DNA of 33,486 nucleotides from Candidatus Micrarchaeota archaeon (GCA_043807785.1 JAZDFO010000066.1:1-33486), one strand, 5' to 3'. Counted from the stretch's first letter, positions 7,433 to 32,869 are shown. Numbers and translations: made by a program. Notes: generated by a model from the sequence alone, not told the origin.

Positions 7433-8536
7433 TTAGGTATGCTCATCACCCCGCAAGACTGCCTTATGAAGCCGTTGCGCCTTAATTTTTTGAGTAAAGT
7501 TGATTTTATTGTAAAACTGACGCACATCATATTTTCGGTTAACGATAATCCCGCGCACCACTCGTTCACAATCACCAACATGGTATCGCCGTGCAACATA
7601 TGGCCGCGTCGATACTATTCCGAAGTCAGCAAGCAATTTTCGGATATCCTCCAAATACAGAATAAAATCCAAGTCAATAGAATTTGCCCGGGTAAAATGC
7701 AGGTTGACATTCCTTGCAGCGTAATTCTCCGAATAGAGCACGGAGCCGTCATCGTCGAAAAGAGCCTGCAAAAAGGCTTTCTTCAATTCCATCGTACCGG
7801 CCATTATCCAATCTGGGACGCTGAGGATGGAAAACACCTTCCTCCCACGCGGAGCGCCGGCAATTTCAAGGATGCGGCCGACAAGCGAGGAGAAACTGAC
7901 TTTGCACGTTCCGTCACCATTCGACCCGGAATAAGTCGGAAAAGAGTGAAAAACAGCCTCGACATCAGTTTTAACCCTCTCAATCAGTTGCAGGTCGCCG
8001 TTGACGTAGTCGAACTCCGCCTTCTTCGAGCTGATATTCCCGTCTCCAAAGCAATGCCCCACCAATCCTGCCAATGCAACAGATTCAATTATTGGAAAAT
8101 GCACGAAAACCTTGCCGCCTCGACTGGAAATTATTTTTAAAACCCGTGATTCGGCATCAATACAAGAAAGCCCGTGCAATGACAAGAGCTTTTTCAAAGT
8201 CGAAAGCCGGATCCCGTGCCGGCCATTTTTAAGGTGATAAAAGTAAGACTTTGAAACGCCCAATTGAACAGGCGCAGAATTGTAGTCTAGGCTCTCGAAG
8301 AGGCTGCGCCTAAACCCGTCGTCCAGCTTTATAATAAAATCTTCCGGCAAGTCAGCCAAATGTATTTCCATAGGCGCAACCGAGCATTTCAAATGCAATA
8401 AAATATCCGCACACGGATAACCACGCGGCAGAATAAACGATTTTCGAAACCTCGTTTCCGGTGCGCTGGTGAGCGCAAAGCTGCCCTCACTACCGCTGCC
8501 GATGACAAGCACCTTGCGCACTCCGGCGGGGTTCAT
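7433..8536 (-). CDS. Double-motif LAGLIDADG homing endonuclease with an HTH-like N-domain. As drawn it is fused in frame to a relic of the carB start (MNPAGVRKVLVIGSG). An independent start at Met 8371 (MEIHLADL) is plausible.
   Basis: Two LAGLIDADG motifs are present: ALAGLVGHCFGDGNI and KAFLQALFDDDGSV. The body is visibly AT-richer than its flanks. The minus strand reads ATATTTTATTGC at about 8395-8406, roughly 30 nt upstream of ATG 8371. The stop codon is at 7433-7435, 10 nt before the carB ATG at 7422. Confidence 0.85.
   Translation of the reverse strand: MNPAGVRKVLVIGSGSEGSFALTSAPETRFRKSFILPRGYPCADILLHLKCSVAPMEIHLADLPEDFIIKLDDGFRRSLFESLDYNSAPVQLGVSKSYFYHLKNGRHGIRLSTLKKLLSLHGLSCIDAESRVLKIISSRGGKVFVHFPIIESVALAGLVGHCFGDGNISSKKAEFDYVNGDLQLIERVKTDVEAVFHSFPTYSGSNGDGTCKVSFSSLVGRILEIAGAPRGRKVFSILSVPDWIMAGTMELKKAFLQALFDDDGSVLYSENYAARNVNLHFTRANSIDLDFILYLEDIRKLLADFGIVSTRPYVARRYHVGDCERVVRGIIVNRKYDVRQFYNKINFTQKIKAQRLHKAVLRGDEHT
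8492..8518 (-). repeat. Distal copy of the duplicated carB start segment (CGCAAGGTGCTTGTCATCGGCAGCGGT)
   Basis: See 7393..7419. This copy uses G/C-ending codons like the rest of the host genes, and it follows an ATG (8536) that overlaps the preceding stop codon as ATGA. Confidence 0.85.
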
Positions 8537-9063
8537 GAGGGGTTCCCCCGGCCTATTCGCTTGCGCTCCAATTCTTCCAACCGTTTGATACCAGCTGTAA
8601 AAGAATGGCGCGTGGATAGCCCCAGAGTGTGGTTCAAATAATCGAGCATGCCGGTTTTCGGGTCATGCACGGCAAGCCCGCCGGGATGTAATTTTTCGAG
8701 ATGCCGGTATACCGCCCTTAACAAATCACGGGCTATCCCCGCTTTTCTCTCGTAATCGTAGAATTTGCGAGGACCCGATTCCAAAGTCGGCTCATAGGGG
8801 TAGAAGATGGAAAAAACAAATTCGTTAGGAGGATCATTGCGCACTACAACGTGCCCCATCCGGTCCCCTAGAGTTGCCGTTTTCTCAATCATCAGCCTCT
8901 CAAGTGCTGGATTTGAGAAGAAGGCTACTGCGGATGGAGGAAGCGATTTTTCGCGGGCAAATATTGTCGTGAACTTGTAAGCACGCACAATACCCTGGGA
9001 GCCCAATCTTTCGAGTACCACCGCTAGCCCGAGCCGCCCAATGTCCTCAATTTCTCTCTTCAT
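8533..9063 (-). CDS. Hypothetical 176-aa protein wedged between carA and the carB-start relic
   Basis: This is the in-frame Met (MKREIEDIGRLG...) of ORF 8533..9159. Its ATG overlaps the carA stop as ATGA (9063-9060), and its TGA overlaps the next ATG as ATGA (8536-8533). I recognise no domain. The stretch KAGIARDLLRAVYRHLEK is only weakly reminiscent of an acyltransferase motif. Confidence 0.55.
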   Translation of the reverse strand: MKREIEDIGRLGLAVVLERLGSQGIVRAYKFTTIFAREKSLPPSAVAFFSNPALERLMIEKTATLGDRMGHVVVRNDPPNEFVFSIFYPYEPTLESGPRKFYDYERKAGIARDLLRAVYRHLEKLHPGGLAVHDPKTGMLDYLNHTLGLSTRHSFTAGIKRLEELERKRIGRGNPS

Positions 9064-10166
9064 AGCATTTTCACGAAGTCGTCGAAAAGGTAGTTTGCGT
9101 CTGCCGGGCCGCACGAGCCCTCGGGGTGGAACTGGCACGAAAATACCGGCAGCTCGCAATGGCGCAGGCCCTCGTTGGTGCCATCGTTGCAGTCCTCGAA
9201 GGTCGGCTTGACTCCCTGGGGCAAATCCTTGACGGCGTAGCCGTGATTCTGCGATGTGATGAAAATCCGTCCCGTCTCAAGGTTTCGCACCGCGTGGTTT
9301 GCGCCGCGGTGGCCGAATTTCAGCTTGTAAGTCGACGCGCCCAAGGCGTGCGCGAGAAGCTGGTGCCCAAGGCATATGCCGAATACGGGCATTTTCTTCA
9401 ATAGTCCGCGCACGGTGGAAATGGTTGGCGCAAGCAGCGCCGGGTCGCCCGGGCCGTTGGAGACAAGCAGCCCGTCCGGCTCGCTTTTTAAAATGTCTTC
9501 GCCGGATGCGTCGAATGGAAACAGCTCGACGGCGACATTCCTTGCAAGCAATTGGCGCACGATGCTTTCCTTTACCCCGCAGTTGATGAGCGCTACCTTC
9601 TTGGACCAGCCCTCCGGCTCGCGCAAGGACCTTTCCTTGCACGACACCTGCCCGACGAAGTTGATGCCGCCGTAGTCGTAGGAACGGATTTTTTCTAGCG
9701 CGCGGCTCGCAGCCTCGGCTGCGCTTTCGGATGGTTGCAGCGGCATCACTGCTGCGGGCATGACGCCTTTCTCGCGCACCCGCAGCACGATGTCGCGCGT
9801 GTCAACGCCGCAGATGCCGGGTATTCCGTGGCTCGAGAGGAATTCGCCAAAGCCCTGCGTTGACTTCGGATGGCAAGAGAACGACGAAACCTCCCTTGCG
9901 ACAACGGCGCGCAAGTGCGGCTTGGCCGATTCAAGCCATTCGCCGGAGATTCCGTAATTTCCCACGAGTGGGTAGGAAAAAGCGAGGATTTGGCCGGCAT
10001 ACGAAGGGTCGGTGACGGCTTCGGGGTAGCCGGTCATGGCGGTGGAAAAGACGAGCTCGCCGACGGATTCGGCAACTGCACCGAATTGGCTGCCCTCGTA
10101 GACGGAACCGTCACAGAGGGCCAATATGGCGCGTTGCGCACTGGATACTGGCGGGGTCGGCTTCAT
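9060..10166 (-). CDS. carA: Carbamoyl-phosphate synthase small subunit (glutamine amidotransferase)
   Basis: Class-I GATase nucleophile elbow FGICLGHQLL, the His/Glu region CQFHPEG, and 368 aa. Confidence 0.95.
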   Translation of the reverse strand: MKPTPPVSSAQRAILALCDGSVYEGSQFGAVAESVGELVFSTAMTGYPEAVTDPSYAGQILAFSYPLVGNYGISGEWLESAKPHLRAVVAREVSSFSCHPKSTQGFGEFLSSHGIPGICGVDTRDIVLRVREKGVMPAAVMPLQPSESAAEAASRALEKIRSYDYGGINFVGQVSCKERSLREPEGWSKKVALINCGVKESIVRQLLARNVAVELFPFDASGEDILKSEPDGLLVSNGPGDPALLAPTISTVRGLLKKMPVFGICLGHQLLAHALGASTYKLKFGHRGANHAVRNLETGRIFITSQNHGYAVKDLPQGVKPTFEDCNDGTNEGLRHCELPVFSCQFHPEGSCGPADANYLFDDFVKML

Positions 10167-13033: not shown

Positions 13034-14029
13034 CTCGGCGTCGATGCGCGCGCGCTGGGAAGGCAGGCGGCGCAAGCCGATGCGCTTGGATAACTGGAAC
13101 AGCCCGGCCAAGGCTATCATGCCACCGTTGTCCCCGCAGTATTCCAATGGCGCGGCCCCGAAGCGCGCGTTGTGCTCTTTGGCAGCCAACGCGAGCATTG
13201 CCGAAAGCCTCTTGTTGCGCGCGTTCCCGCCAACCAAAAGCAGTTCCTTGGCGCCGTAAACGGAGAGAGCCTTCTCGGCGCACTCGCATATCATGGAAAA
13301 AGCCGTCTCCTGCACGGAATAGCAAAGGTCTGGCGGTGAAGCGACTGCCTTTTGGGATGCGGTAAGGAGTCCCGAAAACGACATGTTCATTCCCTTCACG
13401 CTATAGGGCAGCGGCACGAGGTTGCGGCCCTTGCGCGCCGCCTCGAGCACGCCCACCGCGTCAGGGGGTGAAAGCGAGAGGTTCCTGCCGACCAAATCGA
13501 GCATGTTTCCCGCGCCGATGTCAAGCGTTTCCCCGACGATTTGGTAATGCCGTTTCCCGGGCTTGCCGCCCAGGCGGAGAATCTGCGTGTTGCCGCCGGA
13601 AACATACGCCACGACTGGGGCGCGCATGCGGGTGAAAAAGCGGCCGACTTCCGCGTGCGCCAGCGCGTGGTTGACGCCAACGAGGGGAATGCCCAGCGAT
13701 TCACAAAGCGTTTTGGCGGCGACAAAGCCGACGTGAAGCGAGTGCCCCAGGCCCGGGCCGTAAGAGTAAGCCACGGCATCCAAATCGCGGGGCTTTATTG
13801 ACGCCTTGTCGAGTGCGCGCAAGGCCACTTCCTTGAAGTGCTTTGCATGGTGGTCGGCGAGCTTGCGGGGAATGAACCCCTCGCGCAGGGAAGGGTATTT
13901 CGCGGACTCATTGGAGAGAATGCGCGTCGATTTGCCAAACGGCGCGGACATGCTTCCCCTCGCTACCCCGACGCCAAGCGTGTGAGCAGTGCATTCGATT
14001 CCCAATACGAGGCGTGATGAGGTTTTCAT
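13019..14029 (-). CDS. kae1: Kae1/TsaD-family tRNA N6-adenosine threonylcarbamoyltransferase
   Basis: N-terminal LVLGIECTAHTLGVGV, the metal-binding region GVNHALAHAE, and YVSGGNTQ. Start set at MKTSSRLVLGIE (14029) rather than at the track start 14050. Confidence 0.9.
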   Translation of the reverse strand: MKTSSRLVLGIECTAHTLGVGVARGSMSAPFGKSTRILSNESAKYPSLREGFIPRKLADHHAKHFKEVALRALDKASIKPRDLDAVAYSYGPGLGHSLHVGFVAAKTLCESLGIPLVGVNHALAHAEVGRFFTRMRAPVVAYVSGGNTQILRLGGKPGKRHYQIVGETLDIGAGNMLDLVGRNLSLSPPDAVGVLEAARKGRNLVPLPYSVKGMNMSFSGLLTASQKAVASPPDLCYSVQETAFSMICECAEKALSVYGAKELLLVGGNARNKRLSAMLALAAKEHNARFGAAPLEYCGDNGGMIALAGLFQLSKRIGLRRLPSQRARIDAESVAW

Positions 14030-14103: not shown

Positions 14104-14532
14104 ATGAAAATCATTTACAAACAGGTTCAAACAATCAACGAATTTATCGACGCAATCAGGTTAAGGGCCGATGTTTTTATTAAAGAACAGGGGTTTCAAC
14201 CCGGATGGGAACCCGATGAGGATGACAAGAAGTCCGTTCATTATATAGCAATATGCGGCGGGAAGGTTGTCTCAACTGCGCGGCATAGGGAAACTGCGAA
14301 GGGAGAGATTAAGATTGAGCGTATGGCCACAGCTAAAGATTACAGGGGAAAAAATATCGGCAGGGGGCTGGTTGTTTTCATGATTGATGAAATCAAAACG
14401 CTTGGGCCGAAACGAATCTGGTTAAGAAGCCAGGTCCAATCACAGAAGTTCTACGAAAAATGCGGGTTTGCCGCCGTTTCAAAGCCATTCGACCAATGGG
14501 GAGTCCCGCACATAGACATGGAACATGCATAG
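14104..14532 (+). CDS. GNAT-family N-acetyltransferase (AT-rich insert)
   Basis: GNAT motif A is YRGKNIGRGLVVFMIDE, with C-terminal KFYEKCGF. This is the internal Met (MKIIYKQ) of ORF 14014..14532. G+C is visibly lower than in the flanks. Confidence 0.85.
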   Translation: MKIIYKQVQTINEFIDAIRLRADVFIKEQGFQPGWEPDEDDKKSVHYIAICGGKVVSTARHRETAKGEIKIERMATAKDYRGKNIGRGLVVFMIDEIKTLGPKRIWLRSQVQSQKFYEKCGFAAVSKPFDQWGVPHIDMEHA

Positions 14533-14539
14533 GCAGGCA

Positions 14540-14603
14540 GGTTCCCTTCAATTGCCGACGCGACCAGCGCGTAGGCAGTGCATTCGATTCCAAGGACGAG
14601 CAT
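14540..14603 (-). pseudogene. Orphan relic of the kae1 5' end (MLVLGIECTAYALVASAIEGN...)
   Basis: The 17-nt core GCAGTGCATTCGATTCC at 14575-14591 is identical to 13986-14002 in the live kae1 gene. The ATG at 14603 gives MLVLGIECTA, after which the sequence diverges. Confidence 0.6.
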
Positions 14604-14688: not shown

Positions 14689-16191
14689 GTGGCACTGCAG
14701 CGCGCGCAATTGGTTGAAAGGCTAGCGCAGCGCGGGGTCATCATGGCGCCGGCGGCGCTCGAGGCCCTCGCAGGCGAGGAATCGGCGCTGGAATACATCG
14801 ACGAGATTGCCGGCTCGTGCAAGGAATTCGTCGTGAGCGAAAAGACAGTCGCCGGCTTTTTGGAAGGCAAGGGACTCGTAAACAAGGTCGTGCAGGTCGA
14901 GGCGGGGGAAGCAAGCGGATTTGACCCCCCGGCAAAGCACGTCGAATCGATGCTCGAGCTTTCAATCAAGGACAGCGACGTGACCGGCAAGTCCAAGTGC
15001 GGCGGCAACGTCGAGGACTTCGTCCGCCATTTCCGCAACAGGTTCGAGCGCCAGCGCGACGCCCTTCGCGGAATGCGCACGGACAGCTTCGGGACGTTTT
15101 CCATCCGCGACGCCAAAGAGCAGGTCAACAAGGAGTTCCGCGTCATCGCCATGGTCTACGACAAGAAGGTGACGAAAAACGGGCACCTGCTCATTGAAAT
15201 CGAGGACGAAGGCGGCACGGCAAACGCGCTTGTCCCAAAGGACTCGCCGCTAATGCCCGAGGCGCTCAAGATAATCCAGGACGAGGTCCTCGCCCTCGAC
15301 GTGTACGCGTCGAAATCCAAGCTCCTCATCGTAAAGGGGTTCAAGCTCCCCGGCAGCATGCTGCAGGAAAAGAGAAAGAGGCTCATCGCAGACGACATCA
15401 GCATAGCGTTCATCAGCGACATCCACATCGGCAGCAGGTACTTCATGGCCGAAAACTTCCAGCGCATGATAAGATTCCTCAACGGCCACGGCAGCGAACA
15501 GGAACGCGAGATTGCCGGCAAAATCAAGTACATTTCCATCGCAGGCGACCTCGTCGACGGCATCGGCGTCTTTCCCAACCAGGAAAAGCAGCTGCTCACG
15601 AAAAACATTTACACACAATACGAGATGCTCGGCGAGTTCCTCAAGGCGATTCCCCCGCATATCGAGGTGATAATCGCGCCCGGCAACCACGACGGCGTGC
15701 GCCTTGCCGAGCCCCAGCCCTCGCTGCCCGCGGAGTTCACCGAGAGCGTGAAAGGCCAGGCCAACCTGCACTTCGTGGGCAACCCGTCGCGGCATTCAAT
15801 CCACGGACTCGAACTGCTCATATACCACGGCACGAGCATCGACGGCCTCATCGCGCACTCGGCCGCGCTCAAGCAGGGATACGACCGGCCGGAAATCATG
15901 GGAGCGTTCATGCTCTCGCGCCGCCACATGTGCCCGCTCTACGGCGAGGACGCGGTGGTCCCCGAGGAATTCGATTACCTGCTGATTGGCGACACCCCCG
16001 ACATTTTCCACTTCGGCCACATCCACCGCAACGGCCACATAGAAGACTACAACGGCACGTTCATCGTCAACTCCGGAACATGGCAGGACCGCACAGACTA
16101 CCAGGTGCGCATGGGCCACAACCCCACGCCGTGCCTGCTGCCCGTGTACTCGCTCAAGACCGGAAAAGTGCAGGTGCTGAATTTCAAGTAA
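14689..16191 (+). CDS. DNA polymerase D small subunit (DP1, 3'-5' exonuclease)
   Basis: Calcineurin-like phosphoesterase motifs (ISDIHIGS, AGDLVDGIG, PGNHD, GHIH), about 500 aa, and it lies upstream of DP2. The exact start is uncertain (GTG 14689 or TTG 14710). Confidence 0.9.
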   Translation: MALQRAQLVERLAQRGVIMAPAALEALAGEESALEYIDEIAGSCKEFVVSEKTVAGFLEGKGLVNKVVQVEAGEASGFDPPAKHVESMLELSIKDSDVTGKSKCGGNVEDFVRHFRNRFERQRDALRGMRTDSFGTFSIRDAKEQVNKEFRVIAMVYDKKVTKNGHLLIEIEDEGGTANALVPKDSPLMPEALKIIQDEVLALDVYASKSKLLIVKGFKLPGSMLQEKRKRLIADDISIAFISDIHIGSRYFMAENFQRMIRFLNGHGSEQEREIAGKIKYISIAGDLVDGIGVFPNQEKQLLTKNIYTQYEMLGEFLKAIPPHIEVIIAPGNHDGVRLAEPQPSLPAEFTESVKGQANLHFVGNPSRHSIHGLELLIYHGTSIDGLIAHSAALKQGYDRPEIMGAFMLSRRHMCPLYGEDAVVPEEFDYLLIGDTPDIFHFGHIHRNGHIEDYNGTFIVNSGTWQDRTDYQVRMGHNPTPCLLPVYSLKTGKVQVLNFK

Positions 16192-16259
16192 CCAGCGGAA
16201 ACGCGCTTGCGGAAGGCTTAAATAGCTGTTTTCCGAATAATGAGAACAGGCTGATTAAG

Positions 16260-16535
16260 ATGACAAATGCGAATATTCGGATTAGGACTGTTTTCGTCAA
16301 CGACCGCGGGCAGATAGTCATCCCGGAGGACATCCGCAGGGACCTGGGATTGAAGGCAAACGAGGTGCTCGTGCTCATCGAGAAGGCGGGGCACATGCTT
16401 TTGCGGAGGGAAAAGGACGTCGCCCACCGTTTCGGCGCTGACGAGGAGGAGTCGTTCTGGAGGGCGCTCTCGCTAAAGGCGCTCGAAAACGCCTGGGACG
16501 AGAAGGACGCCGCGTGGGACAAGGTAAAGAAGTGA
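16260..16535 (+). CDS. AbrB/SpoVT-fold antitoxin (MazE-like)
   Basis: MTNANIRIRTVFVNDRGQIVIPEDIRRDLGLKANEVLVL is a swapped-hairpin AbrB-type motif. This is the last third of track ORF 15930..16535. Candidate TATA CTTAAATAGC lies about 35 nt upstream. Confidence 0.75.
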   Translation: MTNANIRIRTVFVNDRGQIVIPEDIRRDLGLKANEVLVLIEKAGHMLLRREKDVAHRFGADEEESFWRALSLKALENAWDEKDAAWDKVKK

Positions 16536-16880: not shown

Positions 16881-16973
16881 GGCACGCAAGCCAGCTGACT
16901 CTTTTTTATACTAAAAGCCCAGGTATCTGTGGGTAGAAGGGGGGCTCATAAGGCTAGTTCAGCAGGGTTGTTT

Positions 16974-19900
16974 ATGCCAGCAGCTTCGCCGCACATGCAG
17001 AAGTACTTCACGGAGATGGAGGCCGAGTTCTCGCACGCCCTCGCCGTAGCGCAGGAGGCGCGCTCAAAGGGCTTCGACCCCGCCGACGAGGTGGAAATCA
17101 AGCCCGCTAAAGACATCGCCAGCCGCGTCGAGGGCCTCGTCGGGCCGCCGGGAGTGGCAGACCGCATCCGCGAAATCCTCAAGGCCGAAAGCGGTAGGGC
17201 GGAAGTCGCGTTCATGATAAGCAGGGAAATCCTCGAGGAAAAGCTTCCCGCCGACCTATCCGGCGCAACAGACGCAACCGAGCGCAAGGAAAAGCTCCTC
17301 GAGCAGGCCATCCGCACCGGGCTGGCGTTTTTCACGGAAGGCGTGGTGTCGGCGCCGATTGAAGGCATCACGAAAGTCAGGATAAAGAAGAACCCCGACG
17401 GCACGGACTTCATCGCAGTATATTTCTCGGGGCCAATCCGGGGGGCCGGAGGCACCGGCCAGGCATTCACGGTAATCCTCGGCGACTACTGCAGGAAAAT
17501 CGCGGGAATCGGCGACTACCGCGCGACCCCGAGCGAGACGGACCGTTACGTGGAAGAAAGCAACCTGTACGCAGCCAAGACGCGCGCCGGACAGTATGTT
17601 CCCACTGAAGAGGAAGTCCGGCACATCGTATCAAACTGCCAGGTGTGCGTAACCGGCGAGCCGACAGAGGACTACGACGTCAACGTCAACAAGGGCACGC
17701 CCAACGTCGAAAGCGACCGCGTCCGCGGCGGCATGTGCCTTGTGCTCTCGGAAGGCATCTGCCTCAAGGCCGCCAAAATCCTCAAGATTTCCAAGAAAGG
17801 CGGCCTGCAATGGCAGTGGCTCGAGAAGCTCATCAAGGTCGCCAAGAAGTCCGAGCAGAAGACCGAGCTCAAGCCCGTCGGCAAGTTCATCGACGAAATC
17901 GTCGGCGGCAGGCCGATTTTCGCCTACCCAATGCGCCCAGGCGGCTTTCGCCTGCGATACGGCCGCACGAGGTTCACGGGAATCGCCAGCAAGGCCGTCA
18001 GCCCGGCGACGATGATTGTCCTCGACGAGTTTCTGGCCATCGGCACGCAGATGAAAATCGAGCGCCCGGGGAAAGGGTGCATAGTCACGCCGTGCGGCGA
18101 ACTCGACGGCCCGATTGTCCTGCTCAATGACGGGGAAGTGCGGCAAGTGGACACCATCGCAGCCGCCCAGGAAGTTGCGGGAAAAGTCGCCAAAGTGCTT
18201 TTCGTCGGCGACCTGCTGGTCAACTACGGCGACTTCCTCAAGGCAAACCACCCCCTCGTACCCGCGGCATGGTGCGACGAATGGTATTCGCAAGAGCTGC
18301 AATCCAAGGGCGTGAAAAAGAATCCGCAGGAACTCAAGGCGCTTAGTGCCGAAGAGGCGTTTTCGCTCTCGGCAAAGCACGGCGCGTCGCTCGCCCCGAA
18401 ATACACTTACTATTGGCACGACCTGGCTGCCGCACAGCTCAAGGCCCTGGCGGAGTGGCTTGCAAAGGGAAAGCTTTCCTTTGAATGGTTCGAGTTCAAG
18501 GGCTTTTCTCCGAGCGCCGCAGACGAGGGCGGGAAAGCCAAGTTTGCGCTTGAAACCGCCGGCGTCCCGCACAAAATGCAATTGGGCGGCATCGCATTCG
18601 AAAAGGACGTCGCAATAGCGCTGGCGCGGACGTTCGGGCTGATAAAGGACCGCGCGCTGTCACTCGATAAATTCAACGCCGCATACGCCGACGACAAGGA
18701 ACCGCTCGCGATATTGGAGGGCGCAAGCGGAGTGAAAATCCGGCGCAAGGCAGGGATTTACGTCGGCGGGAGCATGGGGCGGCCGGAAAAGGCCAAGGAG
18801 CGCAAGATGAAGCCGCCGGTGCACTCGCTTTTCCCGATCGCCGAATGGGGCGGCAAGATGCGCGGGCTGGTCAAGGCGCTGGTGCAGCTTAAGGAAAAAT
18901 CGAACGGCAAAATCGAGATAGAGGCGGAGATAAACATCTGCCCGATTTGCGGAAGGAGGGCGTTCGGCAGGCAATGCACGGCGTGCGGCGAAAAGGCCGA
19001 GAGGCGAAGGATTTGCGCAAACCCAAAGTGCGGCAAACCCAATGCTTTGGCGGACCAGAAGTGCCGCTATTGCGCTGGATCAACCAAGCTATCCCAGTTG
19101 CAGGTCGTGGACTACGCCGCCCTGTTCGAGGATGCATCCAAGCGCGTGGGCTACCGCCCCGTGGAAGTCAAGGGCGTCCAAGGCCTCATTTCGGCTACAA
19201 AGACGCCCGAGCCGCTTGAAAAAGGCATCCTGCGCGCAAAGCACCAGCTCTCCGTATTCCGCGACGGCACCTGCAGGTTCGACGGCACTGAAATCCCGCT
19301 CACGCACTTCATTCCCGCCGAATCCGGAGTTTCCATCGAGCGGCTGGCTGCCCTGGGGTATACGACGGACAAGGACGGCAAGCCGATTACCTCGCCGGCG
19401 CAAGTGGTGGAACTCAAGCCCCAGGACGTCATCCTCCCCCTCTATGGCGGGGAATATTTCACCCGCGTGGCCGCATTCGTCGACGACATGCTGGTATACA
19501 AATACGGCCTCGCGCCGTACTACAACGCAAAGGCGCAGGACGACCTCATTGGAAAGCTCGTCGTCGCAATCGCCCCGCACACGTCCGCAGGCATTCTCGC
19601 AAGAATCATCGGATTCTCGGACATGCACGGCCTGCTGGCGCACCCCTACCTGCACTGCGCTTGCAGGCGCAACGCCGACGGCGACGAGATTTCCTTCATC
19701 ATGCTGCTTGACGCGCTCATCAACTTCTCGACTTTCTTTCTGCCCGAAACGCGCGGCGGCAAGATGGACGCGCCTCTCGTGCTTACCACCCTGCTGGACC
19801 CGAACGAGATTGACGACGAGGCGCACGCGATGGACTGCGTGTCTTCCTACCCGCTGGAATTCTACGAGGCGAGCCTCAACATGGCTTCGCCAAGCGAGGC

Positions 19901-20414
19901 GGCAATCGAGACCGTGGCAAAGAGGCTCAACACCGAGGCGCAGTACGAGAACATCAGGTACACGCACGAGGCGGCGCTCGAGGGGCCGGTGCAGACGATG
20001 TACGTGAGGCTCACCAACATGCACGAAAAGGTCTCGCACGAGCTCGAGCTCATGACCAGGATTCGCGCGGTGGACTCGCAAAACGCGGCGGAGAAAATCA
20101 TCCTCTCGCACTTTCTGCCCGACCTTTACGGCAACCTCCACAAGTTCTCCAAGCAGCAGTTCCGGTGCGTAGACTGCGGGCGAAAGTTCCGGCGCGTGCC
20201 GCTTTTGGGCAAGTGCACCAAGTGCGGGGGCAAGCTTTTGCTGACCATCAACAAGGGCGGCATTAAAAAATACCTCGCGATATCAAAGGAACTGGCCGAG
20301 AGGTTCGACCTCCCGCTCTACCTCAAGCAGAGGCTGCTCCTGATAGAGAAGGAGATTGCCAACATCTTCGAAGGCGACACGAAAAAGCAGTTCAGCCTCG
20401 CAGACTATGCGTAA
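16974..20414 (+). CDS. DNA polymerase D large subunit (DP2)
   Basis: The N-terminus YFTEMEAEFSHALAVAQEARSKGFDP...VEGLVGPPGVADRIRE...GVVSAPIEGI...YFSGPIRGAGGTGQA is characteristic of DP2, and C-terminal Cys clusters are present. There is no intein. The start is ATG 16974 or 16995. Confidence 0.95.
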   Translation: MPAASPHMQKYFTEMEAEFSHALAVAQEARSKGFDPADEVEIKPAKDIASRVEGLVGPPGVADRIREILKAESGRAEVAFMISREILEEKLPADLSGATDATERKEKLLEQAIRTGLAFFTEGVVSAPIEGITKVRIKKNPDGTDFIAVYFSGPIRGAGGTGQAFTVILGDYCRKIAGIGDYRATPSETDRYVEESNLYAAKTRAGQYVPTEEEVRHIVSNCQVCVTGEPTEDYDVNVNKGTPNVESDRVRGGMCLVLSEGICLKAAKILKISKKGGLQWQWLEKLIKVAKKSEQKTELKPVGKFIDEIVGGRPIFAYPMRPGGFRLRYGRTRFTGIASKAVSPATMIVLDEFLAIGTQMKIERPGKGCIVTPCGELDGPIVLLNDGEVRQVDTIAAAQEVAGKVAKVLFVGDLLVNYGDFLKANHPLVPAAWCDEWYSQELQSKGVKKNPQELKALSAEEAFSLSAKHGASLAPKYTYYWHDLAAAQLKALAEWLAKGKLSFEWFEFKGFSPSAADEGGKAKFALETAGVPHKMQLGGIAFEKDVAIALARTFGLIKDRALSLDKFNAAYADDKEPLAILEGASGVKIRRKAGIYVGGSMGRPEKAKERKMKPPVHSLFPIAEWGGKMRGLVKALVQLKEKSNGKIEIEAEINICPICGRRAFGRQCTACGEKAERRRICANPKCGKPNALADQKCRYCAGSTKLSQLQVVDYAALFEDASKRVGYRPVEVKGVQGLISATKTPEPLEKGILRAKHQLSVFRDGTCRFDGTEIPLTHFIPAESGVSIERLAALGYTTDKDGKPITSPAQVVELKPQDVILPLYGGEYFTRVAAFVDDMLVYKYGLAPYYNAKAQDDLIGKLVVAIAPHTSAGILARIIGFSDMHGLLAHPYLHCACRRNADGDEISFIMLLDALINFSTFFLPETRGGKMDAPLVLTTLLDPNEIDDEAHAMDCVSSYPLEFYEASLNMASPSEAAIETVAKRLNTEAQYENIRYTHEAALEGPVQTMYVRLTNMHEKVSHELELMTRIRAVDSQNAAEKIILSHFLPDLYGNLHKFSKQQFRCVDCGRKFRRVPLLGKCTKCGGKLLLTINKGGIKKYLAISKELAERFDLPLYLKQRLLLIEKEIANIFEGDTKKQFSLADYA

Positions 20415-22911: not shown

Positions 22912-24078
22912 TTGGGCGTTGAATTCGAGCTTGACGAAGACCGAATAATAGTGCGGGACCTCATCTCAGTTCAAGCGCTCGACAAGGGATATTTCGGCAG
23001 CGAAAACCCGCAAAGCAAGGCCCAGCTCATACTCATGCCCGAAGAGGCGCTCTACCTCATTGACGTGCGCAACGCCACCTGCAGGCGCGGCAAGCGCGAC
23101 GCGTCCTTCAACGAAGTCGCGCGCAAGTTCTCCAAGGCCAAGAAATTCCTCGCAAGGTACTACTGCTACCGCGACTGGCGCGACCGCGGGCTCATTGCAC
23201 GCTCGATTGCCGAAGCGCACGGAGACTACGGCCGCAGCCCCGTATCGAAATACCCGTCGAAGGAAACCCGCTTTGAGCAAGTCAAGGCCCGCGCGCTATT
23301 CTTCACCGACGACCTCATGGCGGTAATTGACGACGACGAGGAAGGCCGCAGGCTCTACGAACAAGGATGGTTCGGGCAATTCGGCACCTACAAGGCCAAA
23401 AAGCACGGCCGGTTCCTCAAGCTCGACGCATACGAGACACTGTTTTTGATGCGCCACGCAGGGCTCAAAACCAATATCATCGAAAAGAAGCTCCTCAAGG
23501 AATGCCTGCGCCGGCGCGCGGACTTCCCCGCGCTCTACGAAGTCTACGAGGACTGGAGGCTGCGCGCCTTCGTGCTCAAGACCGGGTTCAAGTTCGGCAC
23601 GCACTTTAGGCTCTACTTCCCTGGTGCGTCGCCGGCGCTCGCCAACGACGAGTGGATGCACAGCAAGCACGTGATACAGGTCTTCCCCAGGGAAAGCAAG
23701 ATGCTCATCAGCGAGTGGGCGCGCGCAATCCGCGTCGCGCACGGAGTGAAAAAGACGTTCATTTTGGCGATTCCGGGCGCCAAAAAGCCAACTGAAGGCG
23801 CAAGCGCTGATTTTCTGCTCTACCACCGCAAGAAAGGCGGCCTGATAGAGAACCCGAAAGAGGACACTCCGAAATACGCAATGCTTGCGTTGAGCGAAGA
23901 GGAGGAAATCGGCGGCGAAGAGCTCGCCGGCGCAATCGACAACGCCAAGAACTTAGGGCTCGACCTCATGCTTTCAATCTGCGACCGCGAGACCTCGATA
24001 ACGCACTACCGCGTCAAGCGCGTCGAGCTCCCGAAAAGCAAGTACGAATACTACGAGATTGAATGGACGCAGCCGTGA
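22912..24078 (+). CDS. endA: tRNA-splicing endonuclease, single-chain three-unit architecture (388 aa)
   Basis: The central catalytic unit reads ALYEVYEDWRLRAFVLKTGFKFGTHFRLY ... HSKHVIQVF ... RVAHGVKKTFILA, giving candidates for a Tyr/His/Lys triad. An N-terminal EndA-like unit contains YCYRDWRDRGLIARS, and a third C-terminal unit follows. The start appears to be TTG 22912. Confidence 0.85.
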   Translation: MGVEFELDEDRIIVRDLISVQALDKGYFGSENPQSKAQLILMPEEALYLIDVRNATCRRGKRDASFNEVARKFSKAKKFLARYYCYRDWRDRGLIARSIAEAHGDYGRSPVSKYPSKETRFEQVKARALFFTDDLMAVIDDDEEGRRLYEQGWFGQFGTYKAKKHGRFLKLDAYETLFLMRHAGLKTNIIEKKLLKECLRRRADFPALYEVYEDWRLRAFVLKTGFKFGTHFRLYFPGASPALANDEWMHSKHVIQVFPRESKMLISEWARAIRVAHGVKKTFILAIPGAKKPTEGASADFLLYHRKKGGLIENPKEDTPKYAMLALSEEEEIGGEELAGAIDNAKNLGLDLMLSICDRETSITHYRVKRVELPKSKYEYYEIEWTQP

Positions 24079-24170
24079 CGGGAACTGCATTGGCCATTAC
24101 CACAGGAAGGAAGTGCAATCCCCCGTAAAACTGCTTGCGAGCAGGCTGAAAAAAAGGCCGCCTCCGAAAA

Positions 24171-24202
24171 GAATAAATAGTGATTTGCCATTAAATCACT
24201 AT
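24171..24202 (+). promoter_or_regulatory. AT-rich box (GAATAAATA) overlapping a perfect 10-bp inverted repeat, ATAGTGATTT (24177-24186) / AAATCACTAT (24193-24202); candidate vapBC promoter/operator
   Basis: The inverted repeat was read directly from the sequence. It lies about 40-65 nt upstream of the vapB ATG at 24243. Confidence 0.45.
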
Positions 24203-24242
24203 GCCGGTTTCGAGGCGATTGCGGTATAACGGGTGATAAGGG

Positions 24243-24440
24243 ATGTCGGTTCTGACTGTTGAATTCCGGGGCGTGCTTGAGGATGTCCTGACCGCCCTGG
24301 TCAAGCAAGGGTATGCCAAGACGAAGTCTGAAGCGCTGCGCATGGCGCTTTTGCATTACGGCGAGGAGCTCGGGCTGGTGCATAGCAGGCTGCACGCGAA
24401 GGCCGAGGAATACGCCTACGCCGAAATCAAGTCCAGGTGA
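24243..24440 (+). CDS. VapB-type antitoxin (small DNA-binding protein)
   Basis: 65 aa. Its stop codon overlaps the start of the downstream PIN gene (GTGA at 24437-24440). Confidence 0.6.
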   Translation: MSVLTVEFRGVLEDVLTALVKQGYAKTKSEALRMALLHYGEELGLVHSRLHAKAEEYAYAEIKSR

Positions 24441-24826
24441 GCCGCATGTATCTGGACGTAGACGTGCTTTACGCGCTGGTGAAGGAAAAGGACTTCCACA
24501 AAGAATACGCCGAAAGGATTACTGCAACGGCGGGCGCCAAGGTAACGTCCTGCGTTTCCCTCCTCGAGCTCGAAATCGTCGTCAAGCGCGAGCTCGGGGA
24601 CGAGAAAAGCATGGAAATTGACCGGTGGGTCCGCAGGCTCGTGCCCGGGATTGACATTGCCGAATTTACGGAAAAACAGTTCGCCAAGAGCCTCGAATTG
24701 AGGAAAAAATACGGGCTGGGAATATTCGACGCCGTCCACGCCGCGGTTTGCCTGGAGAAGGGAGGGCAGATGGCATCGACCGACCACGCCTTCGACCGCG
24801 TGCCCGGAATCGCCAGGATAAAATAG
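24437..24826 (+). CDS. vapC: PIN-domain ribonuclease toxin (VapC)
   Basis: The four acidic PIN residues are in the expected order: YLDVDV, LLELE, IFDAVHAA and STDHAFD. Length is about 129 aa. Confidence 0.85.
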   Translation: MSRMYLDVDVLYALVKEKDFHKEYAERITATAGAKVTSCVSLLELEIVVKRELGDEKSMEIDRWVRRLVPGIDIAEFTEKQFAKSLELRKKYGLGIFDAVHAAVCLEKGGQMASTDHAFDRVPGIARIK

Positions 24827-24873
24827 GCGGGCAGGGCAGTTACCGGGCAAAGCCTGCCAAGGAAAACCAACTT

Positions 24874-25038
24874 GCGAAGAGCTCGCCTGCGCAATCGACA
24901 ACGCCAAGCACCTCGGCCTCGACCTGATGCTCTCAATCTGCGACAGGGAAACCCAGCATCACACACTACCGCGTCAAGCGCGTCGAGCTCCCGAAAAGCA
25001 AGTACGAATACTACGAGATTGAATGGACGCAACCCTAG
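24874..25038 (+). pseudogene. Displaced, frameshifted copy of the endA 3' end
   Basis: It aligns with 23915..24078. The last 68 nt before the final few codons are identical (24964-25031 = 24004-24071). The upstream part differs mainly at synonymous positions and carries a 1-nt insertion that breaks the frame. Confidence 0.8.
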
Positions 25039-25056
25039 GGTAAGAGGGGGGAGGGG

Positions 25057-25144
25057 CGACACGCGTCCGCGGAGACTTCGCGTCTCCGGGGCGCCGAAGA
25101 CTGGTGGTCTTCGAGCGGGGGGGAGTCTTCCCCCAGAGGTGTCG
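25057..25144. other. 88-nt cloverleaf-like module: three GC-rich hairpins closed by a 6-bp stem
   Basis: The closing stem is CGACAC (25057-62) with GTGTCG (25139-44). Hairpin 1 is CGGAGAC-TTCGC-GTCTCCG (25070-88). Hairpin 2 is CGAAGAC-TGGTG-GTCTTCG (25096-114). Hairpin 3 is GGGGGA-GTCT-TCCCCC (25119-34). Hairpins 1 and 2 differ by a compensatory G-C to A-T pair. Confidence 0.4.
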
Positions 25145-25148
25145 AATG

Positions 25149-25176
25149 CTACGAGATTGAATGGACGCAGCCGTAG
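25149..25176 (+). repeat. Third, short copy of the endA 3' terminus (CTACGAGATTGAATGGACGCAGCCGTAG)
   Basis: 26 nt (25149-25174) are identical to 24051-24076 at the end of the live endA gene. This copy ends in TAG rather than TGA. Confidence 0.75.
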
Positions 25177-25230
25177 ATTCAACGGCAACACTACCCTAAA
25201 ATAGGATAGCCGCAATAGCGGCGGAAAAGC

Positions 25231-26613
25231 TTATTCCTCGGAAACGCTGTTTCTCTTCGCTTTGCCGTTGCCGTTCTTGAGCGAGTTGACGTGCGCGACG
25301 CGCTTTTGAACCAAAGCATTGGTGCCGATGTCCTTGCGGTGGCGCACGGGCCCGGCAATCTTGCATACCGCCTCTTCAGCGAGCTTTTCCGCTGCCTCGA
25401 TTGTGGAAGCGAAGCCCACGCAGGCGACCGCGCGCGAAGTGCCCATTGAATAGACGTTCTTTTGCGCCGTGGATTCCACCGAGCCAAGGTAGTATTTTAC
25501 GCCGGAATTGGCCTTCGAAAAGGCTTCCAGCGCAGCCAAGTCTATGGTCGAGCCGTTCTTTTTCGGATTCTCGGGATAGCCCTGGGGGACGGCGTACTTG
25601 CATACGGATGCCATCGGGGCAAACGAGAGCTTAAGCGTCGAGAGCTTCTGGCTTGCAACAGCTCGGCAGACTTCAACGAAATCGTTTTCAAGCAGTGGCA
25701 GGACGTTCATTATCTCGGGGTCGCCAAAGCGCGCGTTGTATTCAATGAGCTTGACGCCCGAGGCAGTGACCATGAACCCGCCGTACATGACTCCCTTGTA
25801 ATATTGCCCGGTTTCATTGTAAAGCGCAGCAGCAAGGCGTTCCGTGATTTCCTTCGCGTCGGCGACGTCTTCCTTGGAAACGAACGGCAAAAGGCCGTTG
25901 GCGGCGGAATACGAGCCCATGCCGCCGGTATTCTGGCCGACGTCGCCTTCATACGCGCGCTTGTGGTCCTGGACCGCCGGGCATGGCACGACAGTCTTGC
26001 CGTCGGTAATGAACTGCAGCGAGAATTCCTCTCCCTCGAGCTTTTCCTCGACGATTACCCTGCCGCCGGATGCGAGGATTTCACGGCAATACTCCATGGA
26101 ATCGTCGATTCCCTTGAGGTGCTCGCCAAGCAGCTTGACTCCCTTGCCGCCGGAAAGGCCGTCGGGCTTGATGACAAAGCTGTTCATGCTCAGAAGGTAG
26201 TCGCGCAAGCCGGATTCGGAATCGAAGGACTTGTGCTCGGGGTTGCCCTCGATTCCGTATTTTTGCATCAGCCCGCGGGTAAATGACTTGCTGGTCTCGA
26301 GGCGTGCCAGCGACTTGGACGGCCCAAAACAGGCGACGCCCATTTCCTCCAGCGCGTCGACGGCCCCGACGGCAAGCGCGGCCTCGGGGCTCATGACCGC
26401 AATGCTTGCGCCGGTTTCCTTGGCAAATTTCGCAAGCGCAGCCAAATCCTCAAGCCGCCCGACCTGCACTTTCTTGGCCTTTGCCAAAACGCCGGGGTTG
26501 TTGTGCGACAGGTACGCGTAAAGCTCGGCGCCGGCGCTCTTTGCAATCGCATCTGCAAGGCAGTCGGCGCGCGCGGTCGAGCCCAAGCCCACTAGCAACA
26601 CTTTTTCCGCCAT
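25231..26613 (-). CDS. purD: Phosphoribosylamine-glycine ligase
   Basis: Full-length ATP-grasp GARS-type protein of 460 aa, running from MAEKVLLVGLGSTARADCLADAI through LEGEEFSLQFITDG to NARFGDPE. Confidence 0.9.
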   Translation of the reverse strand: MAEKVLLVGLGSTARADCLADAIAKSAGAELYAYLSHNNPGVLAKAKKVQVGRLEDLAALAKFAKETGASIAVMSPEAALAVGAVDALEEMGVACFGPSKSLARLETSKSFTRGLMQKYGIEGNPEHKSFDSESGLRDYLLSMNSFVIKPDGLSGGKGVKLLGEHLKGIDDSMEYCREILASGGRVIVEEKLEGEEFSLQFITDGKTVVPCPAVQDHKRAYEGDVGQNTGGMGSYSAANGLLPFVSKEDVADAKEITERLAAALYNETGQYYKGVMYGGFMVTASGVKLIEYNARFGDPEIMNVLPLLENDFVEVCRAVASQKLSTLKLSFAPMASVCKYAVPQGYPENPKKNGSTIDLAALEAFSKANSGVKYYLGSVESTAQKNVYSMGTSRAVACVGFASTIEAAEKLAEEAVCKIAGPVRHRKDIGTNALVQKRVAHVNSLKNGNGKAKRNSVSEE

Positions 26614-31333: not shown

Positions 31334-31441
31334 GCCTCCGTAGCTCAGCAGCAGAGCGCCTGTCTTGTAACCCGCCGCGCCCCGGTTCCGCGCGATGGGA
31401 AGGAAAACAGGAGGTCGAGGGTGCGACCCCCTCCGGAGGCT
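31334..31441 (+). tRNA. tRNA-Thr (anticodon UGU) with a 36-nt BHB intron at the canonical 37/38 position (31370..31405)
   Basis: Folded by hand. The acceptor stem is GCCTCCG/CGGAGGC, the D arm is GCTC-AGCAGCA-GAGC, and the anticodon stem is CCTGT/ACAGG with loop CTTGTAA. The T arm is GAGGG-TGCGACC-CCCTC and the discriminator base is T. Intron bulges are UA|A and AA|A, the central helix is CUUG/AAGG (with one G.A mismatch), and the intron helix is CCC/GGG plus CGCGC/GCGCG. An AT-rich box TTAAAAAC lies about 26-33 nt upstream. Confidence 0.85.
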
Positions 31442-31616
31442 TCCGATTTACCTGGTGATGACCATGAAAGGAAGCTATTCCATGATGCATGCCGACACCG
31501 CGTTGATGGCAGTAGGCGCCATCATGTTCTTGGGCGGCGACCCAACCGGCATGTGGGTTGCCGTAGCCGGCGCCGGATTGCATTTCGCGTCAGGCGGCGT
31601 TTAAACTCGTTATTCT

Positions 31617-31639
31617 GGTGCGACCCCCTCCGGAAGCTT
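31617..31639 (+). repeat. Direct repeat of the tRNA-Thr 3' end (GGTGCGACCCCCTCCGGAAGCTT), att-like
   Basis: 22 of 23 nt are identical to 31419-31441/2 within the tRNA T arm and acceptor stem. Confidence 0.7.
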
Positions 31640-31776: not shown

Positions 31777-32869
31777 TAGATAACTGCGCGGTTTAGGTGA
31801 CATACGTGTCCACAAAAAAAGAGTTTACCAAACCACGCTTGCGCTGAATCCCCTGCATCTTGCGCAACACCAAATGACGAAGCTCTTCTTTAGTTTGCGC
31901 CTGATGACTTTTCAACTTGAAACCCTTCAAATATTCCCACACATGCTCGTCTGGATTCAATTCTGGCGAGTACGATGGAATCCGATAAATCGCAAGACGA
32001 GTTCCGTTTTTCGCAACAAATTCGTTCACCAACTTCGCCTTGTGCACAGGCGCGCTATCTTCTATCACGATAATTTTACGAAGCGGATGATGCCGAAGTA
32101 TCTGTTCTAAAAATTCGATATGTTTCAACGCATTCACTCGCACTTTTTCAAGTCGAAACAACATGCGTCCGGAAGGGCTGATCGCCGAGGTAACGGTCAC
32201 ACCCCCTTTGTGACCGGTCACCCGAACAACCGGAGTTTTTCCTCGGGGCGCCCACGTGCGCCCCATGACGGGCGTTAGTGAAACGCCCGCCTCATCTTGA
32301 AAATACAGAATCGCACGCCACTTTTTGACGTGTTCCAGAATCAATGGCCATTGCTCGCCAAGCCATTTTTTAACTTCAGCATCGTCGCGCTCGATGGCTT
32401 GACGTCTCGGTTTTTGCGGAGTAATTTTCCACCGGTTGAGTAAACGCATGACGTTGGTTGAATGCAAACTCACGTTCCAATTGCGTTTGAGCATGATGCG
32501 CAGACGTTGGCATGTCCAAAGGGGCGTTTCAAAACCGTATTGCATCGCGTCTTTTTCAAGCATCGCCAATACGGCGGGAACGTCTTCGTCTGGAATTTTG
32601 GTTTTTGGGCCGGATGCTTTTTTACTTTTCAGAGCGGTTTTGCCTTGACGGTTGTAGGTGGTGATCCATCGGGATACGCTTCCTCGATGGATACCGAAGT
32701 ATTCGGCGATTTGATTGACGGGTTCTCCTTTTTCGTGCAAAGCAATGGTCCGTAGGCGGTAATGTTCAAGTACTTCGTGTGATAGGGTTCGACCGTCAGA
32801 AAAAGTCATAGCGTTGATTACTCAGGAAAAGAATATAATCCTATGTCACACAAGCAACGCAGTTATCTA
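31777..32869. mobile_element. IS630-family insertion sequence (1093 bp) with imperfect terminal inverted repeats and a TA target-site duplication
   Basis: The left end is TAGATAACTGCGCGGTTTAGGTGACATA. The reverse complement of the right end is TAGATAACTGCGTTGCTTGTGTGACATA. A TA dinucleotide flanks each end (31775-76 and 32870-71). Confidence 0.85.
31793..32809 (-). CDS. IS630/Tc1-mariner-type DDE transposase
   Basis: N-terminal HTH (VNQIAEYFGIHRGSVSRWI) and a DD..E region (FQDEAGVSL, IVIEDSAPVHKA, YSPELNPDEHVWEY). 338 aa. Confidence 0.9.
   Translation of the reverse strand: MTFSDGRTLSHEVLEHYRLRTIALHEKGEPVNQIAEYFGIHRGSVSRWITTYNRQGKTALKSKKASGPKTKIPDEDVPAVLAMLEKDAMQYGFETPLWTCQRLRIMLKRNWNVSLHSTNVMRLLNRWKITPQKPRRQAIERDDAEVKKWLGEQWPLILEHVKKWRAILYFQDEAGVSLTPVMGRTWAPRGKTPVVRVTGHKGGVTVTSAISPSGRMLFRLEKVRVNALKHIEFLEQILRHHPLRKIIVIEDSAPVHKAKLVNEFVAKNGTRLAIYRIPSYSPELNPDEHVWEYLKGFKLKSHQAQTKEELRHLVLRKMQGIQRKRGLVNSFFVDTYVT

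Follow-up and report, generated by a model that had tools for sequence, protein, structure and literature searches.

Displaced copies of the endA gene end mark probable repeated insertions between endA and purD in a Micrarchaeota archaeon

We analyzed a stretch of 33,486 nt from Candidatus Micrarchaeota archaeon (GCA_043807785.1, JAZDFO010000066.1:1-33486; hereafter the window), in which the 3′ end of endA, the gene for the tRNA splicing endonuclease, is present three times before the convergent gene purD. The first and second copies enclose a putative vapBC toxin-antitoxin unit, and the second and third enclose a 110-nt hairpin module; a sister lineage has an empty site at the same place, and arrays of endA tails with small modules recur in five other species. 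We think it probable that the endA-purD junction is a recombination hotspot, where foreign DNA bearing an endA tail has recombined reciprocally with the chromosomal tail, at least twice in this window.

Three copies of the endA 3′ end and an empty site

The live endA gene (22912-24078, plus strand) encodes a three-unit (epsilon2-type) tRNA splicing endonuclease of 388 aa with the Pfam domain tRNA_int_endo_N and the catalytic domain, and residues 10-388 match a tRNA intron endonuclease in PDB (4fz2, E = 7.9e-126). Copy 1 (23915-24078, plus strand), in the attL-like position, is the end of this gene. Its frame and stop codon are intact after the insertion (…EIEWTQP-TGA), in agreement with the C-terminus …YEYYEI(E/D)WxQP that is common to 4fz2 and all six longer homologues fetched. 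Copy 2 (24874-25038, plus strand) is a displaced 55-codon endA tail whose end is CAACCCTAG, with TAG as the stop codon, and copy 3 (25143-25176, plus strand), which also ends in TAG, is the endA tail in its ancestral context, as argued below. A 68-nt block is identical in copy 1 (24004-24071) and copy 2 (24964-25031), and would be either the exchange interval between the two or the product of later gene conversion; the absence of any mismatch is unexpected, because the nearest other species are 84-94% identical there. The first 80 nt of copy 2 are 87.5% identical to copy 1 and include a 1-nt insertion (an extra C near 24954-24957), at which the spacing between the two copies changes from 959 to 960. 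Copy 3 equals copy 1 exactly over 26 nt (25149-25174), and the similarity widens to 25143-25176 (32 nt, 97%). We estimate that about 1e-7 exact repeats of 26 nt would be expected by chance in 33 kb, and a repeat scan of the whole window returned only two other gene-end repeats that are comparable. The original prediction, made from the sequence alone, had proposed the threefold gene end and the 68-nt core, and had described the stretch of copy 2 before the core as differing mostly at synonymous sites with a 1-nt frameshift; all its coordinates for the copies hold, the core is without mismatch, and our codon comparison agrees.

Besides a cluster of mismatches by the frameshift, the left arm of copy 2 differs from copy 1 by eight synonymous and three nonsynonymous nucleotide differences. 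With the extra C removed, the cluster reads AGC-ATC-ACA against TCG-ATA-ACG, both Ser-Ile-Thr; since it is thereby synonymous, copy 2 is an almost intact endA fragment of 55 codons with a single lesion. In the last codons of the tail copies, every difference is synonymous or from stop to stop. When the tail pairs of the window and of two related loci (L002 and L011) were pooled, 21 differences were synonymous and three were nonsynonymous (21/24), or 26/29 synonymous when the codon cluster, read by eye after removal of the frameshift, was counted. The synonymous share expected is 14-23% under random substitution and ~40% for a silent duplicate that decays beside a constrained live copy, and the observed excess is significant at either level (binomial test: P = 2e-10 at an expectation of 25%, P = 2e-6 at 40%). 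Such nearly exclusive synonymous divergence indicates that each displaced tail diverged as part of a working endA, and hence that live and displaced tails derive from different lineages. This codon-level evidence shows the tail copies to be of lateral origin.

The same figures bear on the simplest alternative, in which the gene end and its 3′ untranslated region were duplicated in place by slippage and the copies then diverged and received unrelated insertions. Plain tandem duplication does occur at the end of this gene. At 7159-7317 of L068, a distant Micrarchaeota locus, a unit of 65 nt (the last 11 nt of endA, the stop codon, and a hairpin/T-rich stretch) is repeated 2.3 times in tandem, with units 2 and 3 sharing changes relative to unit 1, and in three other relatives (L012, L009, and L004) a type A hairpin module, described below, is followed by a truncated second type A. 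For the window we nevertheless regard in-place duplication as highly improbable: a silent copy should decay at every codon position, with ~40% of its differences synonymous where ~90% are observed, the sequence that follows copy 1 (vapBC) is not repeated after copy 2, and the period does not fit. Two other sources of repeated or altered gene ends were considered and rejected. A diversity-generating retroelement is not indicated by the 10 left-arm differences, which involve T, C, G, and A in copy 2 without adenine bias, and no reverse transcriptase was found in the open reading frames (ORFs) scanned (a Pfam profile scan of the window that took in its 33 main ORFs and left out shorter and overlapping ones). 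An intron with bulge-helix-bulge borders, removed by EndA itself, was likewise set aside: no self-complementarity of exon flanks was noticed in the tail, where no systematic scan was made, and splicing from tail to tail leaves the protein unchanged.

As to the source of the displaced tail, no sequence among the loci then compared comes nearer to the left arm of copy 2 than copy 1 does (87.5%); other species reach 70-87% over shorter stretches, which suggests that the donor was a fairly close relative. When copies 1 and 2 were compared with L098 and L001 for the native state, identities were 74-76% against 70-74%.

The empty site that the original prediction had hoped for in related genomes is found in L098, which belongs to a sister lineage (EndA 82% and PurD 74% identical to the window at the amino acid level); there only 23 nt separate the stop codon of endA from that of purD. 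The flank that follows the stop codon is alike in three places: TAGATTCAA after copy 3 in the window, TAAATCATT in L098, and TAAATCGAA after the distal tail of L099. Because the flank of copy 3 resembles that of the empty site, copy 3 is probably the original gene end in its original place, and everything from the exchange point in copy 1 to copy 3, ~1.1 kb, would thus be insertion. Beyond copy 3 lie the ancestral endA-purD spacer (25177-25230) and purD (25231-26613, minus strand; Pfam GARS_N/A/C), which is convergent with endA and is its conserved right-hand neighbor. The host is a member of the Micrarchaeota (DPANN), as the nearest 80 endA loci in species genomes are almost all labeled Micrarchaeota, Micrarchaeia, or Norongarragalinales. 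Synteny of purD with endA is kept in 10 of the related loci (L002, L004, L007, L009, L011, L012, L098, L099, L100, and L102), and the gene order in syntenic relatives is pgm, a 153-aa ORF, endA, and convergent purD.

In syntenic species the gap between endA and purD ranges from ~115 nt to ~2.3 kb, with different cargo in each: none in L012 (~115 nt) and L009 (~185 nt), an EamA transporter in L007 (~900 nt), a 242-aa ORF of unknown function in L002 (~1.1 kb), three small ORFs in L011 (~1.7 kb), and a 655-aa Pro/Ser-rich protein in L004 (~2.3 kb). Arrays of endA tails with small modules are present in five species other than that of the window, represented by L002 (three tails, the third decayed), L011 (two tails), L099 (two tails, the second decayed with a change of Trp to Phe), L100 and its duplicate L101 (three tails and two type-C modules), and L102 (two tails). 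This recurrence also counts against an assembly artifact, that is, a chimeric or collapsed contig of strain variants. The contig is of metagenome type and is met once only in the protein collection, and an exact repeat of 68 nt is of the kind that invites such doubts. At the junction 24873/24874, where the spacer after vapC passes into a mid-endA fragment and endA homology starts abruptly, the overlap with the live gene is only 14 nt, not enough to lead an assembler astray; moreover, each copy has unique flanks, and arrays of this kind are present in at least five assemblies produced independently by different studies. We therefore consider an artifact extremely improbable. A metagenome scan for strain-level relatives of the window returned distant endA genes only, and exact-protein look-ups of VapB, VapC, and EndA gave no match. 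The near-identity of the tail in L083 is an ascertainment effect of the search pattern. Our literature search found no description of the endA-tail locus.

The vapBC unit and the hairpin modules

The unit between copies 1 and 2 (all features on the plus strand) begins with a leader of 85 nt (24079-24163) that is absent from other vapBC loci. The promoter/operator region that follows (24164-24242) is conserved with L092 and contains an A/T-rich TATA-like box overlapped by a perfect 10-bp inverted repeat with a 6-nt spacer (24177-24202). Next is an ORF of 65 aa (24243-24440), a vapB-like antitoxin candidate assigned by position only, which overlaps by 4 nt the putative PIN-domain toxin gene vapC (24437-24826; start at GTG 24437 or ATG 24446). 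VapC matches Pfam PF01850 above the curated cutoff (E = 1.7e-20) and, weakly and below the curated cutoff, the VapC family TIGR00028. The 65-aa ORF has no match in Pfam, NCBIfam, or PDB; beside VapC homologues it is 82-98% identical where full-length (L092 and L094-L097) and is partial in L091 and L093. A spacer of 47 nt (24827-24873) ends where the endA homology of copy 2 begins. The complete vapBC operon of the original prediction is thus borne out in its PIN toxin, its overlapping ORF, and its inverted repeat, with the antitoxin resting on position. The unit resembles VapBC type II modules in the small overlapping ORF before the PIN toxin, the palindromic operator over the promoter, and the varied contexts in relatives, and differs from them in that the antitoxin candidate is without a family match and the module is enclosed by two ends of a housekeeping gene.

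The VapC homologues (66-82% identity), each with the same small ORF upstream, sit in other genomic contexts. Homology between the window and the vapBC locus of L092 extends from about 24164 to the end of vapC. Given that it is confined to the stretch from promoter to vapC, the parts specific to this insertion would be the leader (85 nt), the trailer (47 nt), and the endA fragment (165 nt). L091 and the empty-site contig L098 belong to one assembly and show comparable divergence; in L091, vapBC and purC converge. In L092, an orphan in-frame fragment of 30 codons from the 3′ end of purC (DRTLCRDGGVPLDAVLKGFERATELTGNSF*; ~842-935, minus strand) directly follows the vapBC cassette, and its intact homologue is the purC gene found after vapBC in L091; on this short contig, the fragment may be another displaced gene end. 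The different contexts in relatives suggest that the cassette moves and can adjoin displaced gene ends elsewhere.

The module between copies 2 and 3 (25039-25148, plus strand) is 110 nt long, G+C-rich, and predicted to form several hairpins; folding bears out the structured module that had been proposed here. It runs from GGTAAG..GGGGCGACAC through two perfect hairpins and a G/C stem to GGTGTCGA, which directly adjoins copy 3. Homologues of this module, which we call type C, adjoin a displaced endA tail in L002, L004, L100 (two copies), and L102. The window and these four loci share a 5′ box (..GGGrGGTArAGGCGAC) and a predicted fold (a closing stem GACAC/GTGTC, a small internal loop, and a G/C stem), and their 3′ box GGTGTCGA is fused directly to a displaced tail that starts CGAR-TAY-TAY-GAR. 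The window module is thus a member of a conserved family, linked to the endA tail and present in at least five other species, and not an anonymous remnant. The junction between type C and the tail (GTGT|CGAR-TAY-TAY...) is identical in the window, L002, and L102, and the tails at this junction carry the codon of the host clade (ACG for Thr in the window, AAR for Lys in L002 and L102). A constant junction combined with host-clade codons argues for independent entries of a tail-carrying element, since a single ancient scar would have decayed. In L100, a deletion of 12 nt makes the tail start at GAATGG.

Type C is one of three kinds of module found beside endA. Type A modules are present in L004, L005, L011, and L012, and in second position in L009; type B modules in L009, L006, L002, and L099; and type C modules in the window, L002, L004, L100 (twice), and L102. 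A similar hairpin of two stems, which reaches across the stop codon, is present in types A and B, and in L099 its loop holds further nested hairpins. In ~1 Mb of related loci, all three types are seen only at the endA 3′ end, and their distribution on the EndA tree is patchy. The number of extra perfect hairpins in type C varies from none (L002 and L102) to two (the window and L004) to several (the first unit of L100), and perfect hairpins are likewise nested in loops or between boxes of type B and type C modules elsewhere (L099 6168-6300, L100 3557-3760, and L002 4230-4290). Because hairpin number and position differ by species, the modules appear to grow by hairpin insertion. Perfect hairpins as a general intergenic feature were rejected as an explanation: in the window as a whole they are not enriched (14 found against 13 expected), and two of them lie side by side in the module. 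An Rfam search of 23800-25400 gave only chance-level matches, none at the gathering score, and the z-scores of module folding conflict between loci and so are silent on whether the modules act as RNA or as DNA.

How the inserted units may have arrived

The direction of exchange can be read from L002 and L099, whose EndA proteins are 93% identical and of which only L002 has the type-C unit. Relative to L099, L002 carries a clean insertion of 100 nt (a 33-nt tail, TAA, a leader, and the type-C hairpin) at the live tail of L099. The proximal tail of L002 agrees with L099 at all three informative codons, where the distal tail does not; the distal tail, in turn, agrees with L099 at its last codon and in the flank beyond it. 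This pattern fits reciprocal exchange, in which the live tail combines a left part from the host with a right part from the incoming DNA and the displaced tail combines the opposite two, and is the opposite of what one-sided illegitimate insertion would leave. The exchange interval in L002 is only ~5 nt (CAGCC), just before the stop codon. Across the three type-C events (L002, L102, and the window), the deduced intervals have the Gln codon in common. In L011 the interval lies upstream of the Lys codon, and the vapBC event may have taken place anywhere in the 68-nt block.

The history that we propose follows a Campbell-type logic, in which foreign DNA with its own endA 3′ end would recombine reciprocally with the chromosomal endA tail, after which endA would end in the tail and stop codon of the newcomer, with its former tail left downstream as a silent direct repeat. 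In the window, a type-C element would first have entered the ancestral tail, giving the last codons and TAG of copy 2, the 110-nt module, and the displaced copy 3. A unit of ~960 nt would then have entered the tail that was live at the time, giving copy 1 and displacing copy 2; it would have consisted of the leader, the vapBC operon with its own regulation, and 165 nt of endA that originated in a close relative. Under this scheme, copy 1 would be native to the left of the crossover, its last codons and TGA would have arrived with the vapBC insert, and the newest unit would be the one that adjoins the gene; the order of the two events is our deduction from this arrangement. Both inserts are without a recombinase and would be integrase-less cassettes or remnants, comparable to cis-mobilizable elements and moved by a recombinase in trans or by homologous recombination of the host.

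Several observations weigh against this history. No integrase was found among the 33 main ORFs of the window or between the repeats examined, no recombinase domain in the cargo ORFs of L001, L002, L004, L007, and L011, and none in the Pfam-annotated neighbors in L099, L100, and L102. Neither an endA tail nor a module was found in any viral contig by pattern scans, or in plasmids and phages by BLAST, in collections whose coverage of DPANN episomes is not known. A unit of 100-140 nt is too small for a double-stranded circle, and so would have to be a deletion remnant, a passenger in larger DNA, or a product of some other route. The crossover intervals of L002, L011, and the vapBC event do not coincide, which is untypical of one site-specific enzyme. 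Finally, the insertions are dated only relative to lineages at 82-85% amino acid identity. These results divide the claims of the original prediction. Its view that integration appears to have happened at least twice at this site is upheld, and the integrase that it did not see between the repeats was not found in the ORFs scanned either. Of the attL/attR picture that it drew, the insertion scars and a gene end supplied by the incoming DNA stand, and site-specificity is not supported, as no integrase in cis, no attP episome, and no fixed crossover were found. The target is indeed the splicing endonuclease, as it stated; a special meaning of this choice is not supported, given similar scars at the 3′ end of a tRNA-Thr gene and the 5′ end of kae1 (see below).

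Which agent joined the tails can be explained in two main ways. The first is a site-specific recombinase (a tyrosine integrase or similar) encoded elsewhere, in the genome or by a virus or plasmid, and acting in trans, with the last ~25-33 nt of endA as attB and the modules as decayed or non-autonomous attP-bearing elements, an accretion like that of cis-mobilizable elements (CIMEs). Tails of 26-33 nt with 7-12% mismatches sufficed for exchange, and at ~5 nt the L002 interval falls short of what ordinary homologous recombination needs. Three species have the same type-C junction, and the conserved hairpin always stands beside the tail as an accessory arm would. The 23-nt repeat of the tRNA-Thr 3′ end in the same window is of the classic integrase type, and accretion with CIMEs has a precedent in bacteria (PMC5704250). 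Working against a recombinase in trans are the lack of an integrase in cis in any locus examined and of an attP episome in the viral, plasmid, and phage collections, and the variation of the inferred crossover positions between events; in addition, the element-borne left arms (up to 165 nt) resemble freshly copied coding sequence, which a fixed crossover near the stop codon would not refresh. We hold this explanation to be quite possible, if short of likely.

The second is general recombination of the host with no dedicated system, in which a segment between two tails loops out or is acquired from a relative and its tails recombine by homology, now at one point and now at another, vapBC having entered by a homology-driven single crossover or by homology-facilitated illegitimate recombination. 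Variable crossover positions and the failure to find integrases are in line with such a process, and it accommodates the long (165-nt) coding-like endA fragment of the vapBC unit, the restriction of modules to endA in ~1 Mb of related loci, and the duplication of ends at unrelated genes (the kae1 5′ end around an acetyltransferase cassette, and the purC tail in L092). It has to contend with homologies that are very short and mismatched, and with transfer between clades ~25% divergent in EndA, which homology alone is unlikely to achieve. The identical type-C junction in two clades would require a single origin followed by spread across clades, and the resemblance of the proximal rather than the distal tail of L002 to the L099 state speaks against one-sided illegitimate insertion. 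We judge general recombination to be rather unlikely. A further conjecture, which we think quite unlikely as a whole, is that types A, B, and C form a family of miniature elements, non-autonomous and directed specifically to the stretch around the endA stop codon throughout the Micrarchaeota, each combining a folded site (closing stem, internal loop, G/C stem, and variable terminal structure) with an endA tail. They would be served by a recombinase in trans, possibly one that acts on single-stranded DNA as integron integrases do on attC, and vapBC would be a captured cassette.

Other scars in the window and comparison with known systems

The two other comparable gene-end repeats are at a tRNA gene and at kae1. 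An intron-containing tRNA-Thr(UGU) gene (31334-31441) was found by Rfam and missed by ARAGORN, which reported no tRNA at all. Its last 23 nt (31420-31442) recur with 22/23 identity at 31617-31639, and the two repeats enclose an insert of ~175 nt with a hydrophobic mini-ORF of 47 aa, an att-like arrangement with no integrase. Just past the second repeat, in low-GC DNA, lies an IS630-like DDE_3 transposase gene (31793-32809, minus strand). The 5′ coding end of kae1/tsaD (minus strand; LVLGIECTAH) is duplicated at 13972-14011 and 14561-14600 with 80% identity, and the copies flank a low-GC GNAT acetyltransferase cassette (14104-14532). The displaced copy retains its own ATG (MLVLGIECTAY...) and a TATA-like box upstream. 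The duplication is a counterpart, at a gene start, of the displacement of the endA tail. With scars at both tRNA-Thr and kae1 in the same window, endA is not unique.

Other parts of the window also hold low-GC or toxin-antitoxin-like genes. The carB (4243-7302) and carA (9060-10166) genes, both on the minus strand, have between them a low-GC (~0.50) insert (7433-9159) that encodes a LAGLIDADG_3-domain protein (7433-8536) and a 208-aa ORF without a family match. A HEPN-domain ORF (3021-3557) adjoins a nucleotidyltransferase ORF (3558-4178), both on the minus strand and low in GC, with the look of a HEPN/MNT-type toxin-antitoxin pair. A MazE/AbrB-type (SpoVT) ORF (15930-16535) lies between the genes for the small (14689-16191) and large (16929-20414) subunits of DNA polymerase D; the start listed for it falls inside the last part of the small-subunit gene, so a later one is more probable.

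Streptococcal accretion is familiar from ICESt1/ICESt3 and fda. In streptococci, integrative elements and CIMEs accrete in tandem at the 3′ end of a target gene, and accretion of decayed, integrase-less elements at a gene end is established in bacteria (PMC5704250). Such tandem accretion with cis-mobilizable remnants at a gene 3′ end is the known system closest to the endA locus. In both, each unit lies between direct repeats of the target 3′ end and the gene end comes with the arriving element; decayed units that have no integrase stay flanked by att-like repeats, and new units are added at the same site to build arrays. The endA locus differs in its host, a DPANN archaeon, in its target, in units that go down to hairpin modules of 65-140 nt, in the lack of a visible integrase-bearing partner, and in att-like repeats that are coding-like up to 165 nt with apparently variable crossovers.

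Archaeal elements with SSV-type or pNOB8-type integrases insert at tRNA genes, where serial integration leaves att remnants. They share with the endA locus the duplication of a gene 3′ end and the serial att remnants, of which the tRNA-Thr gene in the same window is an example; here, in contrast, the target codes for a protein, and there are neither int(N)/int(C) fragments nor intact integrase genes beside the repeats. Integrons, archaeal ones included, carry gene cassettes with attC sites. The endA units are like these in a self-regulated toxin-antitoxin cargo followed by a folded attC-like element (a GACAC/GTGTC stem, an internal loop, a second stem, and a variable end), and unlike them in having no attI and in that every unit is delimited by a gene-end copy, of a kind that integrons are not known to generate. 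An integron attC was itself rejected for the module, whose ends are GGCGACAC and GTGTCGA: the R″/R′ boxes (RYYYAAC / GTTRRRY) are absent, and no IntI was found in the ORFs scanned.

Casposons insert at the 3′ end of the aEF-2 gene or at tRNA genes, make identical target duplications of 14-15 bp, have terminal inverted repeats, and encode Cas1. Like the endA units they are archaeal, strongly prefer the 3′ end of one conserved gene, and form tandem arrays. A target duplication by a casposon or by a miniature inverted-repeat transposable element was rejected, because the repeats here are 26-165 nt long with synonymous differences and terminal inverted repeats are absent: the two ends of the module are not inverted copies of each other, as its CGACAC/GTGTCG boxes lie 18 and 5 nt from the ends. 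No Cas1 was found, and the only transposase found is the IS630-like one, ~6.6 kb from the repeats.

To our knowledge, almost nothing is known of gene acquisition in the tiny-genome archaea of the DPANN group. The locus described here is an archaeal, DPANN-specific hotspot of tandem accretion at the stop codon of endA, and what makes it unusual is the miniature hairpin modules fused to the gene tail. The conserved end of an essential gene serves as a landing pad, at which insertions survive because the gene is rebuilt. Successive lateral events can be read from the arrays of displaced tails, and before-and-after pairs (L098 and the window, L099 and L002) delimit the inserted units to the nucleotide. 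If a dedicated recombinase exists, the type-C hairpin with its 33-nt tail would give organisms without genetic tools a compact att system; if none exists, the locus would show how far homology-driven capture can reach with very short homologies.

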